DNA from: Bacilli bacterium
Lineage (GTDB): Bacteria > Bacillota_I > Bacilli_A > ML615J-28 > CAG-698
Assembly: GCA_050953085.1 (NCBI GenBank)
Contig: JBMNLX010000002.1
Coordinates: 9,866-73,865, forward strand
DNA: 64,000 nt
Direction of reading: 5' to 3'
Shown here piece after piece: positions 2,468 through 63,764 of the stretch. Both the position numbers and the translations under genes were made by a program. The notes under the pieces were generated by a model. That model had not been told where the DNA came from. It ran no database searches and worked only from the letters and a program-made list of their open reading frames with translations. Numbering within the stretch: the first letter of the stretch is position 1; every line of letters starts with the position of its first letter.

Positions 2468-2866
2468 TATCGCGGCATGCGCGCGGTCAAAGACGTCGCG
2501 GCAGACGACGATGAGTTTCCCGTTGCCGTAATGGAGTCCCGCGATCTCGCCGCCGGCCTAATACTCGCATACAAACTCGTGACCCGGGTAGGAAAGAATG
2601 ATGATTTTCTTCCCGGAAGCGAGAAACACGCGGCCGTCGGGGAGATCGAAAGCGATTGAACTAAAGGTATAAGGAATTTTCCGTTCCCGGCTCAGATCGC
2701 TGCGCGTATTCTCTTCAAACTCGTAGACATAACCGGCTTCTTTGTAAAGGTAAATGCCGTCGGCGGATATATAGTTTTCCGAGGTCGAGGAGGCGGAGGT
2801 CTTGATTGCGACCCGTATGCGGTCAGAATCAAGATCCCAAACGACAAACTTCCCTACTTCTTCCAA
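2468..2866 (-). pseudogene. gene remnant: open frame with in-frame TAG (2558-2560), no ATG and no RBS
   Basis: The 102-codon frame ends ...GHEFVCEY-TAG. It continues in the same frame for 30 more codons (AGGEIAGLHYGNGKLIVVCRDVFDRAHAAI-TAA). The only start is a TTG without an SD. Confidence 0.35.
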
Positions 2867-2982
2867 ATAGAGCCGGTTGAATGTTTTATTATAAAGAAAA
2901 TATTAGCAAACGCAGATACTTCATAATAACCCCCATTCGCTTCTTCTGATATAATATTACCATTATTAGCCTTTAAGTTTAA

Positions 2983-3008
2983 GAAAAAAATCCGCGTTTT
3001 ACGCGGAT
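2983..3008 (-). terminator. intrinsic terminator after ileS
   Basis: Minus strand ATCCGCG-taaaa-CGCGGAT followed by TTTTTTT, directly after the TAA at 3012-3010. Confidence 0.8.
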
Positions 3009-3009
3009 T

Positions 3010-6000
3010 TTACTTCATCTTCACGATTACTTCCATGCCGTCAATCGAGATCGCCTTTTCCAGTCGCGGCGACGCGATATCAGCGCGGACGGTCGCGAGC
3101 GTCTCGACGCCGAGTTGGGCGGAATAAGCGCCGAGAACCCGCTTCATGTTCTCGCTTTCGGTGAGAATCGCGAGCTCGATCCGGTCGGAAACATGAAAGC
3201 CCGCTTCCTTTCTCAGGACCTGGCATTGCCTTAAAAGCTCGCGGTAATAACCCTCGTCGATTAGTTCCGGGGTAAGTTCCGTCGCGAGGGCCACCAGGCG
3301 CTCGCCTTCCTCGAACCAGGCGTAGCCGGGCAGGTATTCGGACTCGACCTTAAAGATCTCGCCCGGTAAAACATATTCCCCGACCGCGATTTCCGCGCCC
3401 TCGTCATAACGCTTGACCGCTTCCGCCATCGCCGCGGGCTCAAGCCCCGCGAGCAAATCCTTAACGGCGTTGACCTTGTCCTTTAGGACCGGGCCCGCCT
3501 TCCGAAAATCAAGCGCTCAAATAACGGCGCTTAAGTTCTTCGCTTCCGGAAAGAAACTTGATTTCCTTAACGTTAATCTCGCTTTCGATCGTTCCGCGGT
3601 AAGACTCGACGACTTTCTCCTCATAGCCGGCCAGGTAAAGGGCGGAAAGCGGCTGCTTGATTTTAAGATTATTCTCGTTGCGCAGCTTGAGGGCGCCGGT
3701 AATCACTTCCCGCGCGACTTCCGTCTCCGAAAGGATTTCCTCGTCAACGCCGGCGGATTCCGGGAAACGGGTCAGGTGAACGGAATGCTCTTCATCCGGC
3801 TCGACGCGCAGGACGAGCGCCTGCCAAATCCACTCGGTCATGAAGGGGATGATCGGCGCCATAACTTGCGTCATCATTTTAATCGCCCGGTACAGAGCGT
3901 AGTACGCGGTGTATTTGTCCTCGTTCATTTCCGATTTCCAGAACCGCTTGCGGTTGATCCTGATATACCAGTTGGAAACGTCGTCGACGCATTTTTCAAA
4001 AAGTTTGATAATCTCCCACGGCTCGTAAGCCTCGTAAGCGGCCGTCGCCGCGGAAACAAACTTTCTCACCCGGGCCGATAGCCAACGGTCGGACTTGTCG
4101 GTTAATTCCGGTACCCGGTTTAATTCGGGTTTATCGATCTGGTAATAGAGGTCGAAAAAGACGACGATATTCCAGAAAGCGAGCAACCGGCGCTTCGCGT
4201 CGTCGCCCAGGGAGAACCCGAAGCGGACCTCGCTCGTGGCGGGGGTGGAAACGTAGATATAACGGGAGGCGTCGGCGCCGATTTTTTCCGCGGCTTCCTC
4301 GAACCTGATCATAACGCCGGTTTTCGAGAAACGCGACCCGTCTTCCGAAACCACAATCCCATGCGTCCCGACTTGCTCGTACGGCGGCTCGCCGATCAAC
4401 ACAGTCGACATAAAGAGGAGCGAATAAAACCACAGCCGAACCTGTTCGTGCATCTCGATCACGTACTCGGCGGGGAAATACTCGCGCCAATAATCGCGGT
4501 CCTCGAAATACTTCAGAGTCGAAAACGGCACGATCCCGGCGTCAAGCCAAACGTCGCCCACTTCCGCGATCCGCTCCACGGCCGCGCCGCATTTCTCGCA
4601 CTTAATCTTGACCTCGTCGATCCACGGCCGATGCAGTTCCTTAAGATTGTCGACGAGGCGCGGGTCGACGGCTTTTTCGCGCAGCTCCTCCTTGCTTCCG
4701 ATAACGGTCAGGTGACCGCAGGAGCAGGGATAAAACGGCAGCGGCAAGCCGTAGAAACGTTTCCGGGAAATATTCCAGTCCGACATATTGTTAAGCCAGT
4801 CTTCCATCCGCTTCCCCTGGTACGCGGGATACCATTTTACTTTCCTGGCGTTTTCGATCAGAAGCGGCCTCAGTTCGTCGACGGCGATCGCCCATTCCTT
4901 GCCGAGGCGGAAAAGGATTTCTTTTTTACAGCGCCAGCAGACGGGGTAACTATGCTTATAAGGGTGAACCAAAAAGAGTTTTCCCTGCTCGCGCAGGCGC
5001 TCGAAAACAAGCTCGCTTACTTCCTGGGCGTGCTTGCCGGCAAGAAAGCCGAAATCTTCGTAAAAGTAGCCGTTCTCGTCGATCGGCATGATGACCGTAA
5101 GGTCTTCCTTTAACCCCAGATCGTAGTCCTCGGCGCCGCACCCGGGGGCGATATGAACGACGCCCGAACCCTCGTCGGCGGAAACCTCGTCCCAGAGGAT
5201 GATTCGGTGGTCGACGCCCCGCTGGCGGGGAAGGTCGGGAAACATCGTCTCGTAACGCTTGCCGGCAAGATCCGCTCCCTTAAGCTCCGAAAGGATCTTC
5301 CCGCCGTCTTTATGAAACTTCTTGAAATATAACTCCTTAACCATAATAAGCGGCCGCGCTTCGCCGGGGACGGTTACCTTAAGATACGTGAGCTCGGGGC
5401 TTACCGCGAGCGCGGTATTGCTCGAAAGCGTCCAGGGCGTCGTCGTCCAGACAAGAATATCGGCGTCCTCGCCCTTAAGCGGGAGTTTAACGAAGACCGC
5501 CGCGTGCTCGAGTTCCTTGTAGGACCCTGCCATCTCATGATCGGATAGCGACGTCCCGCACCGCCCGCACCACGGCATCGGCCGGTACAACTGCTTCAGC
5601 CAGCCGCGCTCGTGACAACGCTTAAGCATCGCCCAGATGCTCGTGATATTGCCGTCATGATGGGTGTAATACGAGTTATCCCAATCCATCCATTGCCCGA
5701 GTCGCTTCGACTGCTCGGTAATGACGGCGGCGTATTTCTCCACGCGGGCGACGCAGGCCTCGGTGAACTTGTCCAGGCCAAATTCCTCGATATCCTTTTT
5801 CGAGGCAAAGCCGAGTTCTTTCTCGACCTCGACCTCGACCCATAGCCCTTGGCCGTCAAAACCGTTGCGGTAATGCGACGTGTAACCCCGCATCGCTTTA
5901 TAACGCAGGAATGTATCTTTTAAAGTCCGGCCCCAAACGTGATGCATCCCCATCGGGTTGTTGGCGGTAATCGGCCCGTCGATAAAACGGTACTTCTCGC

Positions 6001-19019: not shown

Positions 19020-19146
19020 TTGTAAAGCACCTCCTCGTAAAGTAAGACTCGCCATACGGGCGGACATTAGTCGCTTAAGGCCCGGTCTGAGCGGTTGCGC
19101 TTGTTCACAACATACATATTATACACTTTTTAAGCGTGAAAGTCAA
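19020..19146 (-). promoter_or_regulatory. rplU promoter (TTGACT-17-TATAAT) and ~90-nt leader (possible L21 leader)
   Basis: Minus strand -35 at 19146-19141 and -10 at 19123-19118. The leader is GC-rich and structured. Assignment to the L21-leader family is by position only. Confidence 0.45.
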
Positions 19147-26669: not shown

Positions 26670-26734
26670 AAGGGTTTTCTATAACTCTTTTTCTCTTTAT
26701 TATCTAAATGTAAGCGTTTTCCTTATTAAAAGGC

Positions 26735-61890: not shown

Positions 61891-62868
61891 CTATTCGATA
61901 ATCCTGTCGGCTCGGTCCAGAAGACTCTGGGGAATGACGATGCCGATTTCGTCCAATTCTTTTTTATTGATGACGAGATCGAATTCGGAAAGACCGGTCG
62001 ACGGGATATCCTTGGGGTTGACATTGTCCCGCAAAATCTTAACGGCCATTTCCGCCGTTTGCTTGCCGAGACGGTAATAATTGATGCCGAAAGTGATCGA
62101 GCCGCCCGCGGCGACGATATTCGGCTCGCCGACGATCGCCGGGATTTTCTTTTCCCTAAGAACGTCCTTAACGATTCCCATCGCCCCGGCGATGGTGTTG
62201 TCGGTCGGAATGTAGAGGGCGTCGACGCCGGACGCGAGCTGGCCTGCGACCTGCTGCAGGTCGTTGACGCCTTCGATAGTTTTAATCGTGACTTCAAGGT
62301 CGATTTTTTCCGCTTCTTCTTTGGCGATATTAGCCTGGACCGCGGAATTGTTCTCGCTCGCGGTATAAAGAATTCCCAGTTTTTTCGCCCCGGGGAGCAG
62401 TTCCTTCACCAGCGATATTTGCTCGGCGATCGGATTCATGTCGTTTGTGCCCGTTACGTTCCCGCCCGGTTTTTCGGGGCTTGCGATTAGTTTGGCGTCG
62501 ACGGGATCCGTCACCGCCGTGAAAAGAATCGGCGTGTCTTTCTTCTGCTTCTTCGCCTCGTTTACGACGGCGTTCGCCGCTTGCGTGGCGATAGCGAGAA
62601 TTAGGTCGGATTTACGGACGAGTTTCTTCGCCTGAAGCGACATCGTGTTGGCGTTGGCGTGCGGGTTTTCTTCCAGGATCGTGATATTTTCCCCGTCAAC
62701 GAACCCCGCTTCCGCGAGCCCGTCGATAAAACCCCTTTTCGCTTCATCCAACGCTTCGTGCTCGGTGTACTGAAGAATGCCGATTTTTATCCGCCCGTCA
62801 TCGCACCCGGCAAACATCGCGACGACAAGCGTCAATAAAAACAAACCAAAAAACTTACTAAATTTCAT
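61891..62868 (-). CDS. ABC transporter substrate-binding lipoprotein (COG2984 / ABC_sub_bind type)
   Basis: Lipobox (MFAGC). KIGILQYTEHEALD N-terminal strand typical of this family. AGGAGG RBS. Confidence 0.8.
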   Translation of the reverse strand: MKFSKFFGLFLLTLVVAMFAGCDDGRIKIGILQYTEHEALDEAKRGFIDGLAEAGFVDGENITILEENPHANANTMSLQAKKLVRKSDLILAIATQAANAVVNEAKKQKKDTPILFTAVTDPVDAKLIASPEKPGGNVTGTNDMNPIAEQISLVKELLPGAKKLGILYTASENNSAVQANIAKEEAEKIDLEVTIKTIEGVNDLQQVAGQLASGVDALYIPTDNTIAGAMGIVKDVLREKKIPAIVGEPNIVAAGGSITFGINYYRLGKQTAEMAVKILRDNVNPKDIPSTGLSEFDLVINKKELDEIGIVIPQSLLDRADRIIE

Positions 62869-62887
62869 TTTTTCCTCCTTATGCTCA

Positions 62888-63001
62888 TAAAATAAAAAAT
62901 TGTGTTATCACATCAAGTAATAACACAATAATCTTAGGCTTTTTTACCGTTACCGTGTTATTACTTTCGACGCCTTCGGCCGGTGTCACGTAATAACACG
63001 G
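62888..63001 (-). promoter_or_regulatory. four-segment attenuator: hairpin 1:2, alternative 2:3, terminator 3:4 plus U tract
   Basis: Minus strand segment 1 is CCGTGTTATTAC (63001-62990). Segment 2 is GTAATAACACGG (62964-62953). Segment 3 is ATTGTGTTATTAC (62929-62917). Segment 4 is ATAACACAAT (62908-62899), followed by TTTTTATTTT. Confidence 0.7.
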
Positions 63002-63051
63002 ATTTAATTATGACTTATGACTTACTCCCGCAAGAAAAAGCCAAGAATCAA

Positions 63052-63126
63052 TCAGTGTTTTTCATGACACCTTCTTGGAAAGTAATAATAATAATAGTAG
63101 TAACGGTTGACTACAAGCCTCGTCAT
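63052..63126 (-). CDS. leader peptide MTRLVVNRYYYYYYYFPRRCHEKH (seven consecutive Tyr codons)
   Basis: AGGAG lies 7 nt before ATG 63126. Codons 9-15 are TAC TAC TAT TAT TAT TAT TAC (63102-63082), then TTT. The TGA is at 63054-63052. Confidence 0.6.
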   Translation of the reverse strand: MTRLVVNRYYYYYYYFPRRCHEKH

Positions 63127-63152
63127 AATTAAGCTCCTATCAAGTTTAACTA

Positions 63153-63181
63153 ATTATATCATTATTATTATGCCTTGGCAA
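63153..63181 (-). promoter_or_regulatory. promoter of the leader / ABC uptake operon
   Basis: Minus strand TTGCCA (63181-63176), 17 nt, TGaTATAAT (63161-63153). Confidence 0.65.
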
Positions 63182-63250
63182 TGAAAAATTTCAAAGAAAA
63201 CGCTTACTGTAAGATATTTTTGAAAATAAAGCGCGAATAAACCGCTTACA

Positions 63251-63454
63251 TCATTGTTCCAGCAATTTAAGCGCCCTTTTGTAAAGGGGATCGAACTCGC
63301 AGCCGCAGTTACCGCATTCCGCATCCGCCCGCCGTAAAGCCGCGACAAGCCGCTCTTTGTCTTTGTTTCCGGATAGCCAGTCCCGCGCCGGCGCGGCGAT
63401 CACGCTCCAGCCCGAGCGAGCGAACTTCTCAAGTATTTCCCTTAACTCATCCAT
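63251..63454 (-). CDS. hypothetical 67-aa protein
   Basis: ATG 63454 follows AAAGGAGAA. Contains a CGNCGC motif. Confidence 0.45.
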   Translation of the reverse strand: MDELREILEKFARSGWSVIAAPARDWLSGNKDKERLVAALRRADAECGNCGCEFDPLYKRALKLLEQ

Positions 63455-63473
63455 AACGTTCTCCTTTCTTTCG

Positions 63474-63764
63474 TTATAATATCGACAGAATAAATAGCAC
63501 TGTGAATAATACAAAGGCTGCCAAAAAGAACAAAACGACGACCCAATCGTATTTTTTATTGTCTCTAACGGCAAGCCAGAAAAACCAAAATCCCGTAAGA
63601 AGCATCATGCCGACAACCGGGATCCTGACTTCCTTCAACATCCGGCGCATGCTCGACCATTCCGGATAATCGTCGATTAAATAGTTAAAAAAGATCCCCG
63701 TGCCGACGGCAAGCAAAAGAATGACGCAGCCGATAATAAAATTATGTTTCCGCAAATTTTTCAT
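63474..63764 (-). CDS. hypothetical small membrane protein (3 TM)
   Basis: ATG 63764 follows GGAAAGGA. Three hydrophobic segments. Confidence 0.45.
   Translation of the reverse strand: MKNLRKHNFIIGCVILLLAVGTGIFFNYLIDDYPEWSSMRRMLKEVRIPVVGMMLLTGFWFFWLAVRDNKKYDWVVVLFFLAAFVLFTVLFILSIL

Follow-up and report, generated by a model that had tools for sequence, protein, structure and literature searches.

What does a run of seven consecutive tyrosine codons do in a short open reading frame (ORF) that stands in front of the genes of an ATP-binding cassette (ABC) transporter? The question is raised by a 64,000-nucleotide stretch of DNA from a Bacilli bacterium (contig JBMNLX010000002.1, positions 9,866 to 73,865 of the forward strand), here called the window, whose minus strand carries such a leader between a promoter and the genes of a substrate-binding protein (SBP), a permease and an ATPase; all positions below are those of the window unless a locus is named, and the features are collected in Table 1. 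Our analysis implies that the leader is, with high probability, a ribosome-mediated transcription attenuator that reads Tyr codons, and to a lesser degree Phe codons, and controls a tyrosine importer. At the level of sequence comparison this reading is carried by the elements themselves, by their conservation, by compensatory changes in all helices, by an RNA strand (segment b) that lies astride the leader stop codon and by the Tyr/Phe link of the transporter clade; from these we infer leader translation, stalling, pausing and the response in vivo. An earlier reading of the letters without database searches (the sequence-only reading) had proposed a trp-style attenuator of four segments. The attenuator stood and the count of four segments did not, since segment 1 of that reading (our segment c) has a partner in a fifth one, b, which consists of the last part of the leader ORF including the stop codon. 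The question it had left, namely how a stall could be relayed from the leader to distant switching segments, is thereby solved, because b pairs with segment 1 and its flank.

The promoter, the translation signals, the codon run and the first hairpin were all recovered as the sequence-only reading had described them. The promoter (TTGCCA, 17 nt, TGaTATAAT) matches the consensus at 11 of 12 positions and has the upstream TG. The AGGAG motif stands 7 nt before the ATG of the ORF, whose Tyr codons read TAC TAC TAT TAT TAT TAT TAC and are followed by the Phe codon, and the hairpin CCAAGAA:TTCTTGG with its CTTTTTC tract comprises 7 bp (-7.9 kcal/mol). The mutually exclusive helices that had been numbered 1:2, 2:3 and 3:4 (here c:d, d:e and e:f) were found as well, with 12, 14 and 12 bp and energies of -16.6, -15.5 and -14.2 kcal/mol, and they are conserved with compensatory changes. 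The last of them is an intrinsic terminator that lies behind the leader ORF and ahead of the first structural gene; a terminator scan detected it independently (62929..62899, 13 pairs, tail TTTTTTATTTT). Compared with 200 dinucleotide shuffles, none of which folded as well, the 281-nt leader has a z of -5.75. In its minimum free energy (MFE) fold the ORF 3' end GGUGUCAUG...AACAC (63071-63055) pairs with segment 1 and its 3' flank GUGUUAUUACGUGACACC. The two alternative states, b:c with d:e (the ON fold) and the leader hairpin with c:d and e:f (the OFF fold), are nearly iso-energetic in the window, the helix sums being -36.3 and -38.7 kcal/mol, respectively.

The comparison rests on 14 distinct leaders upstream of SBP genes of family PF04392, with SBP identities from 82% down to 47%. 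The relatives were taken from the DNA around 11 leader-yielding proteins, found mostly by exact-protein look-ups, and a metagenome scan added the close locus L013 and also L014, one locus at 47% SBP identity (L and a number being locus labels). SBP relatives at 53-82% identity are numerous in metagenome assemblies, where the named ones belong to metagenome-assembled genomes (MAGs) of Bacilli or Acholeplasmataceae. Their loci come from different samples and have different flanking genes; they are not assembly duplicates of a single sequence. The same leader arrangement precedes the SBP gene in every fetched close relative (13 other distinct sequences), the -10 box lines up across the homologues in the leader alignment, and the order SBP, permease, ATPase is the same in the fetched relatives. 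Across the 451 kb of fetched loci, all matches of an nhmmer profile of the leader lay in front of such SBP genes, and the window gave a single match.

The leader ORF behaves as a coding sequence. All 14 leaders have its ATG, 12 of 13 have a recognisable Shine-Dalgarno (SD) sequence, and in each of the 14 an open frame with a Tyr/Phe run ends 5-10 codons after that run. The runs include YYYYYYF, FYYFYYF, FFYYFYF and FFFFYF among others, so that the proportion of Tyr to Phe varies across the family, the window copy being the richest in Tyr. The N-termini differ in sequence and length and the frame stays open throughout despite insertions and deletions. Within the runs, TAT and TAC replace each other synonymously, Tyr is exchanged only with Phe, and no UAY codon has turned into a stop. 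The conserved ATG and SD, the open frame, the nature of the changes and the lack of stops argue that the run is a translated sensor and not a simple repeat. The peptides of the relatives are MTKVFANRYYYYYYFPRRCHEKTLI, MTKLVKVNYYYYYYFPRRCRG, MKPNVSLIAEFYYYYYYFPRGCHV, MINIVMNEFYYFYYFLRGRHV, MNSIICNQFYYYYYLPRRYQS, MNSIIINQFFYYFYFPRRYLVN, MTSYYYSYQYYYFKEEVM, MKQILLNQFFFFYFQGRYCD, MIKSINNVNQYYYYYYFPRRCHV, MKKGMIQFHLYFYYFQERCCE, MKKLNSIVMSKSYYYYYYFPRVVR and MKKTLLNLFKSFFYYYFYFFQEVSSSLGI. The sequence-only reading had proposed to look for the Tyr run and for covariation upstream of orthologous genes, and had held that loss of the ORF or of its run in related genomes would speak against it; an aromatic run in the Tyr frame was found in all 14 distinct sequences, and covariation was found too.

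The covariation was computed on an alignment of the 14 sequences (A3). In the ON fold 81.8% of the cells are paired and 13 pairs are changed on both sides; none of 500 column shuffles reached as high a value, and controls with slid positions gave 31-58%. In the OFF fold 92.6% of the cells are paired, with 9 pairs changed on both sides, and RNAalifold yields this fold unprompted. The terminator helix e:f alone has 95.5% of its cells paired, and the leader hairpin is conserved with a compensatory change in two pairs. Pairing of b with c occurs in all homologues: the cognate duplexes average -17.1 kcal/mol, the non-cognate ones -11.2 kcal/mol, and the words on the two sides change together, as in GGUGUCAUG/CGUGACACC, GAUAUCUUGU/ACAAGAUAUC, GAUAUUGUG/CACAAUAUC, UUGUUCG/CGAACAA, GAUGUCAUG/CAUGACAUC and GACGUCAUG/CAUGAUGUC. 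The most distant leader, L014, forms all four helices from other words (GUUAUCG and CGUGAUAAC), at -15 to -16 kcal/mol per helix. An antiterminator and an anti-antiterminator that exclude each other are thus backed by covariation.

Two further pairings were tried and rejected as general parts of the switch. The relay that the sequence-only reading had offered, UCUUGGCUUUUU (63046-63035) with AAAAAGCC-U-AAGA (62944-62932), reaches -12.1 kcal/mol in the window and -8.5 kcal/mol in L009 and is strong in no leader beyond those of the window and its closest relative, the average of the other leaders being that of non-cognate pairs. The pairing of the Tyr run with segment d, which came from the MFE fold, is strong in the window, L010, L093 and L103 and has no cognate advantage overall.

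The position of b relative to the leader codons is what would allow a ribosome to choose between the folds. All 13 leaders analysed have the stop codon within the b strand, which extends from -22 to +9 nt from the first base of the stop. The footprint of a terminating ribosome covers roughly -15 to +12 nt, and by this measure the span of b falls within it. Furthermore, counted from the first base of the codon, b starts 7-11 nt past the last aromatic codon and 20-36 nt past the first. A ribosome that stalls with an aromatic codon in its A site therefore leaves b free unless that codon is among the last one or two of the run, and one that has reached the stop hides b. On geometry alone, then, ribosome position would select the fold; the masked folds of the window agree with this and those of the homologues are mixed. 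For the full window leader the probability of the terminator is 1.00 with no ribosome and 0.98 with a ribosome at the stop, and falls to 0.29 upon a stall in the middle of the run, where the antiterminator reaches 0.70. On transcripts that end before segment 4, the mid-run stall raises the antiterminator relative to the ribosome at the stop in L010, L093, L096, L106b, L108, L109 and L102. Masked folding, a check which the sequence-only reading had suggested, thus speaks for the model in the window and several homologues and is ambiguous in others; it was not used as primary evidence.

Untranslated RNA has structures of its own. Folded alone, the 5' domain forms a long hairpin, one side of which is the end of the Tyr run with CCAAGAAG and the other the U tract with GGGAGUAA; the 5' arm of the leader hairpin (CCAAGAA) pairs there with this second side instead of its usual partner. 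In addition, the start-codon region UUAAUUAUGAC (63132-63122) has a perfect 11-bp complement, GUCAUAAUUAA, just 5' of segment 1. The pairing of the AUG region with element X amounts to -11 to -17 kcal/mol in 7 of 13 leaders and to -8.7 kcal/mol in L100; it covaries in L009, L010, L096, L102, L103 and L108 and is absent in L093, L098, L106 and L109. Since the long 5' hairpin buries b and the start codon, the default is 1:2 with 3:4, that is, termination. The AUG-region pairing may limit leader translation to one round by a single ribosome.

Taken together, we propose the following course of events. Transcription would start at the extended -10 promoter, and the polymerase would probably pause after the leader hairpin and its U tract, which we consider a probable pause or early-termination signal coupling transcription to translation. 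The first ribosome would then translate the 24-codon leader. With plentiful charged tRNA-Tyr it would reach the UGA stop and cover b with its footprint, c:d and e:f would form, and transcription would terminate at 62899-62888. With scarce charged tRNA-Tyr it would stall in the seven Tyr codons upstream of b; the exposed b would capture the emerging c, d would pair with e, no terminator would form, and the SBP, permease and ATPase genes would be transcribed. If the leader were not translated at all, the long 5' hairpin would form, the SD/AUG region would pair with GUCAUAAUUAA, and termination would be the default; in the window the Tyr run could additionally pair with d, a possible contributor to this default termination.

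Table 1. Features of the leader and of the operon behind it (window positions; segment numbers in brackets are those of the sequence-only reading).
Feature	Position	Strand	Source
Promoter: -35 TTGCCA 63181-63176, 17-nt spacer, extended -10 TGaTATAAT (hexamer 63158-63153)	63153..63181	(-)	promoter scan
Leader SD AGGAG 63138-63134 and start codon 63126-63124	63122..63138	(-)	sequence
Leader ORF, 24 codons and UGA stop, peptide MTRLVVNRYYYYYYYFPRRCHEKH	63052..63126	(-)	ORF list and translation
Putative sensor, segment a: seven Tyr codons 63102-63082, one Phe codon 63081-63079	63079..63102	(-)	conserved run
Segment b, ORF 3' end up to the stop: core GGUGUCAUG 63071-63063, AACAC 63059-63055; pairs with c	63055..63074	(-)	folding, duplexes
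Leader hairpin CCAAGAA 63078-63072 : UUCUUGG 63047-63041, then U tract CUUUUUC 63040-63034; encloses b and the stop codon	63034..63078	(-)	folding, conservation
Element X CUUGCGGGAGUAAG (complement of the Tyr-run end UUACUUUCCAAG) and anti-AUG element GUCAUAAUUAA 63014-63004	63004..63033	(-)	duplexes
Segment c (1): CCGUGUUAUUAC and flank GUGACACC; partners b or d	62982..63001	(-)	duplexes, covariation
Segment d (2): AAAGUAAUAACACGGUAACGG; partners c (anti-antiterminator) or e (antiterminator)	62947..62967	(-)	duplexes, covariation
Segment e (3): AUUGUGUUAUUAC; partners d or f	62917..62929	(-)	duplexes, covariation
Segment f (4): GUGAUAACACAAU 62911-62899 and U tract UUUUUUAUUUU; intrinsic terminator with e	62888..62911	(-)	terminator scan
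Cre-like DNA motif AGTAAGCGTTTTCT, directly upstream of the -35 box	63195..63208	(-)	positional conservation
SD AGGAGG 62879-62874 and substrate-binding lipoprotein gene (ATG 62868), 325 aa, PF04392	61891..62879	(-)	Pfam E 7e-74
Permease BPD_transp_2	61879-60968	(-)	domain search
ABC ATPase, true start probably further in	61029-60175 (ORF)	(-)	domain search

The transporter behind the leader fits the codons in it. Among solved structures the window SBP matches CD0873 best (6HNI, E 6e-56), followed by SP1069 (3LFT, 4e-51) and VC_1101 (3LKV, 4e-45), the local alignments with the three being roughly 35-45% identical. CD0873 of C. difficile binds tyrosine; its Glu-263 reads the hydroxyl and its Tyr-279 excludes tryptophan, and the Phe/Trp binders VC_1101 and SP1069 have Ala at the position of Glu-263 (PMC6816091). 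Glu248 and Tyr264 of the window SBP align to these two residues, and the protein thus combines the PF04392 domain with the residues that mark a predicted tyrosine ligand. Another member of the family, TrpX, serves tryptophan uptake according to genetics and is under T-box control (PMC9382623). Tyrosine as the substrate, as the sequence-only reading had suggested, is supported both by the residue signature and by the Tyr/Phe T-boxes of the relatives described below, and judged from these sequences the window importer is most likely a tyrosine uptake transporter.

No known RNA class accounts for the leader. A permissive Rfam scan of 62500-63600 (E up to 10) detected no T-box or riboswitch and gave only noise-level matches to eukaryotic miRNAs and snoRNAs, and at gathering scores the only match in the whole window was a ribosomal protein L21 leader elsewhere; the sequence-only reading had asked for this exclusion. 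Likewise, no covariance model of the Rfam amino-acid leaders (Trp, His, Leu, Thr, Leu/Phe) or of the riboswitches matched, and neither a Stem I with specifier loop nor a T-box sequence, the marks of RF00230, is present at the window leader. The SBP relatives at about 40-50% identity carry T-boxes and not the leader (two score Rfam E 8e-15 and 1e-16), and a scan of genome contigs returned only relatives at about 50% identity, all with T-boxes. The specifier is UAC (Tyr) or UUC (Phe) in every readable case, in 25 rows that include five near-identical copies of a single weak partial match, in a census whose profile was seeded from Tyr/Phe examples and may miss other types. Some of these loci have tandem SBP genes, the first behind a Phe (UUC) and the second behind a Tyr (UAC) T-box (L002 2328-2815 and 3966-4279; L003 1211-1549 and 2699-2996; L066 1165-1386 and 2560-2766), and L008 has a Phe and a Tyr T-box in tandem (2143-2458, 2493-2821) before one gene; the T-boxes of these four loci score 69-76 bits, the Rfam gathering score being 93.

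The leader family has tandem arrangements too. Both L098 and L106 have one permease and one ATPase behind two SBP genes, and each of these SBP genes has a promoter, a cre-like motif and a leader to itself; the leaders of L098 (1240-1503 and 2594-2847) encode FYYYYYL and FFYYFYF, and those of L106 lie at 3-148 and 1242-1503, the first interrupted by the contig end. Transcripts from the first promoter of either locus must traverse the second attenuator before they reach the permease genes. Seen across these loci, the family would sense Tyr and Phe in varying proportions.

Several observations weigh against the attenuator reading or limit its support. The core words GUGUUAUUAC and GUAAUAAC are near-invariant in 13 of 14 leaders; therefore the covariation of c:d, d:e and e:f rests on the helix ends and on L014, and because the sequences are related the shuffle controls overstate the significance. 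Masked equilibrium folding leaves about half of the homologues ambiguous: in L103, L098a and L102 the terminator or c:d prevails under every mask, and d:e does so on truncated transcripts of L009, L098b and L100. The model therefore leans on the co-transcriptional order, and the decision must be kinetic, as in the classical systems. The first hairpin with its U tract may be a pause signal, an early terminator or a mere partner of AAGAAG, and the pairing of the Tyr run with d, strong as it is in the window, is not consistently conserved. Finally, all leader-linked SBPs carry the Glu, even those behind Phe-rich leaders. Among the readable SBPs behind T-boxes, all those with a Tyr T-box have Glu, and Ala occurs solely behind Phe T-boxes, some Phe T-box SBPs having Glu as well. 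As a discriminator of Tyr-rich from Phe-rich leaders the Glu/Ala residue was thus tried and fails, so the signature fits tyrosine without resolving Tyr from Phe within the family. In spite of these points, the mechanism class is supported by comparative analysis, the sequence-level marks of a leader-peptide attenuator, namely the short ORF with its own ribosome-binding site (RBS), the codon run, the terminator and the exclusive helices, being all present.

One would argue that the near-invariance of GUGUUAUUAC and GUAAUAAC, which goes beyond what pairing needs, betrays a protein- or ligand-dependent attenuator, in which the UUAUUAC/GUAAUAA words, including the UAU repeat, are binding sites or part of an aptamer, the small ORF is incidental and no translation is needed; the Tyr run does resemble the conserved words and can pair with segment d. 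However, two partners per segment are enough to explain why the words drift slowly, and L014 has the same architecture with different words. An incidental ORF would also not be expected to keep its ATG in all leaders, a correctly spaced SD in 12 of 13 and an open frame in spite of insertions, deletions and divergent N-terminal codons, to change its run only synonymously or from Tyr to Phe, and to place its stop codon always within segment b. In addition, the tRNA-sensing Tyr/Phe T-boxes of the relatives match codon sensing, and no Rfam family matches the leader. Thus we regard such an attenuator as quite unlikely.

It is also very unlikely, in our estimate, that the leader is translated but reports something other than tyrosine supply, be it general translation stress, the modification of tRNA-Tyr (for example queuosine at position 34) or arrest by the nascent peptide at YFPRR. 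The residues after the run are fairly conserved (FPRRC, FPRGC, FPRRY), but their codons encode the hairpin arm and b, so that RNA pairing explains the conservation, and other leaders have KEEV, QGRY, QERC or QEVS in the same place. With regard to modification, tRNA-Tyr carries queuosine, and in L098 and L099, which represent one lineage only, the gene of the queuosine precursor transporter QueT (710-1186) lies directly upstream of the Tyr-leader operon, an adjacency that could be more than coincidence. Runs of Tyr codons are indeed sensitive to tRNA-Tyr modification (PMC13602947). Against this stands the Tyr/Phe composition of the leaders, which matches the Tyr/Phe T-boxes of the family and the ligand of the transporter. 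Chance, that is, a (TAT)n trinucleotide expansion or decaying element beside an ordinary terminator hairpin without any regulatory role, would fit the simple repeat TATTATTATTAT and the AT-rich island which the leader region forms in a window of 51% G+C, but is hardly credible for an arrangement shared by 14 distinct sequences, with SBP identities as low as 47%, in loci from different samples with different flanking genes, with mixed TAC/TAT codons that never become stops, covarying helices and the fold z-score given above.

The attenuator reading places the leader next to the classical leaders of Proteobacteria (trpL, hisL, pheL/pheA, pheM/pheST, thrL, leuL, ilvL). Like them it has an SD-ATG ORF with a codon run for the regulated amino acid and overlapping alternative hairpins that end in an intrinsic terminator, with termination as the default without translation; the antiterminator is favoured when the ribosome stalls in the run, the terminator when it gets to the stop, as proposed here. 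The his leader, with its pairs A:B, B:C, C:D, D:E and E:F, is nearer than the trp leader to the multi-segment logic of the Tyr leader (PMC11802643, PMC3082878), which by its predicted pairings would be a five-segment, his/pheA-like switch. In contrast, the classical leaders control biosynthetic operons or tRNA synthetases, whereas the Tyr leader controls an uptake ABC transporter; it senses tyrosine with some phenylalanine and has no sequence or Rfam relationship to them; and its regulatory codons lie upstream of the first switching segment and not inside it. Its host belongs to uncultured Bacilli related to Acholeplasmataceae. Relative to the classical attenuators, the amino acid, the target class and the lineage would thus be new, as would the RNA family, which Rfam does not contain. 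Leader peptides are considered rare in Firmicutes and have been noted there as T-box replacements (PMC2965389), and such replacement is the pattern seen here.

In agreement with the sequence-only reading, which knew of no Tyr-codon leader, our literature search found no described leader peptide with a Tyr run, the nearest being candidate or mixed aromatic leaders before aroF. One of these is uORFC-13-1, a candidate leader attenuator of Acholeplasma and environmental sequences, for which Brewer et al. 2021 (PMC8632094) describe a promoter, an RBS, a start codon and Phe codons, with a terminator next to them. It is reported exclusively upstream of aroF (DAHP synthase), with a U run that codes for at least one Phe (PMC8632094). 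The link to aromatic amino acids, the broad lineage and the logic are shared; however, the window element precedes an ABC importer and not aroF, and the leaders here have 5-8 Tyr/Phe codons, a distinction drawn from the published description of the motif. The other is the AroR leader before aroF of Corynebacterium glutamicum, which contains Phe-Tyr-Phe, responds to Phe limitation and is reported to be unaffected by Tyr availability (Neshat et al. 2014, as summarised in PMC11802643). It is likewise a ribosome-mediated attenuator with Tyr as well as Phe codons, but with a single Tyr codon, before a biosynthetic gene and in an actinobacterium. The Tyr (UAC)/Phe (UUC) T-boxes of the paralogous PF04392 transporters and the TrpXYZ T-box of Streptococcus suis (PMC9382623) share with the Tyr leader the transporter family, the tRNA-charging signal and the terminator/antiterminator output, and the tandem SBP genes with their own sensors in L002, L003 and L066 parallel the leader loci L098 and L106. 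They differ in that a T-box binds tRNA directly, whereas the leader depends on a ribosome translating codons and has neither T-box sequence nor Stem I.

These comparisons make us lean, if only slightly, towards a broader reading, namely that the leaders form an RNA family not described before, in an Acholeplasmataceae-related lineage, that they have replaced Tyr- and Phe-specific T-boxes before aromatic amino acid ABC importers, that the Tyr:Phe codon ratio tunes each SBP gene to its own ligand and that here is the first clear tyrosine-specific ribosome-mediated attenuator. The Tyr-rich and Phe-rich leaders before tandem SBP genes and the FFFFYF run of L102 are offered as examples of such tuning. 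On the attenuator reading as such, tyrosine would join the amino acids known to be sensed by leader-peptide attenuation, and a mechanism seldom seen in this Gram-positive lineage would be found there in control of an uptake transporter. The leader also provides a regulatory argument, independent of protein homology, that the poorly annotated PF04392 ("COG2984") transporter imports tyrosine, and it documents how, within one gene family, T-box and leader peptide have been exchanged in evolution as sensors of tRNA charging. The natural variants with their differing Tyr/Phe ratios and tandem leaders would be material for learning how codon composition sets specificity.

The promoter of the leader has an additional conserved element. 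Of 13 orthologous promoters, 12 have GTAAGCGTTTTC, with at most 2 substitutions, equally far from the -10 box, compared to 0.017 expected per region. The (A/T)GTAAGCGTTTTC motif, which resembles cre and LacI-family operators, shares its position in the window, L009, L010, L093, L096, L098 (both leaders), L100, L103, L106 and L109. The window, L096 and L100 have another cre-like copy about 42 nt upstream of the first, which in the window is the weaker of the two (63237-63250, minus strand). The window as a whole holds 19 matches to the cre consensus where 26 are expected, and so shows no enrichment. The conserved position suggests a candidate operator, through which a DNA-binding regulator would act on top of the attenuator. 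At 26709-26722 the word of the leader promoter recurs, on both strands, in a cre-like site that is an almost perfect palindrome, TGTAAGCGTTTTCC.

A few observations concern the host and the more distant loci. The L21 leader mentioned above (RF00559, Firmicutes-type, 19035-19106, minus strand, 47.6 bits) fits the Bacilli assignment of the nearest relatives, and the G+C content of classical Acholeplasma is much lower than that of the window. L001, from a Bacillota MAG, has a Gut-1 RNA (RF01706, 52.7 bits) at 3980-4054, which adjoins a tRNA gene downstream of the transporter. In L007, a Halanaerobiales relative, the region 2700-3000 has neither a T-box nor a Tyr/Phe leader but a short ORF, ATG TAT TAT GGT ATT ATG, followed by a GC-rich terminator-like hairpin, ACACACTCCTACAGGTGTGTGTTTTTTT, which may be an attenuator of another kind.

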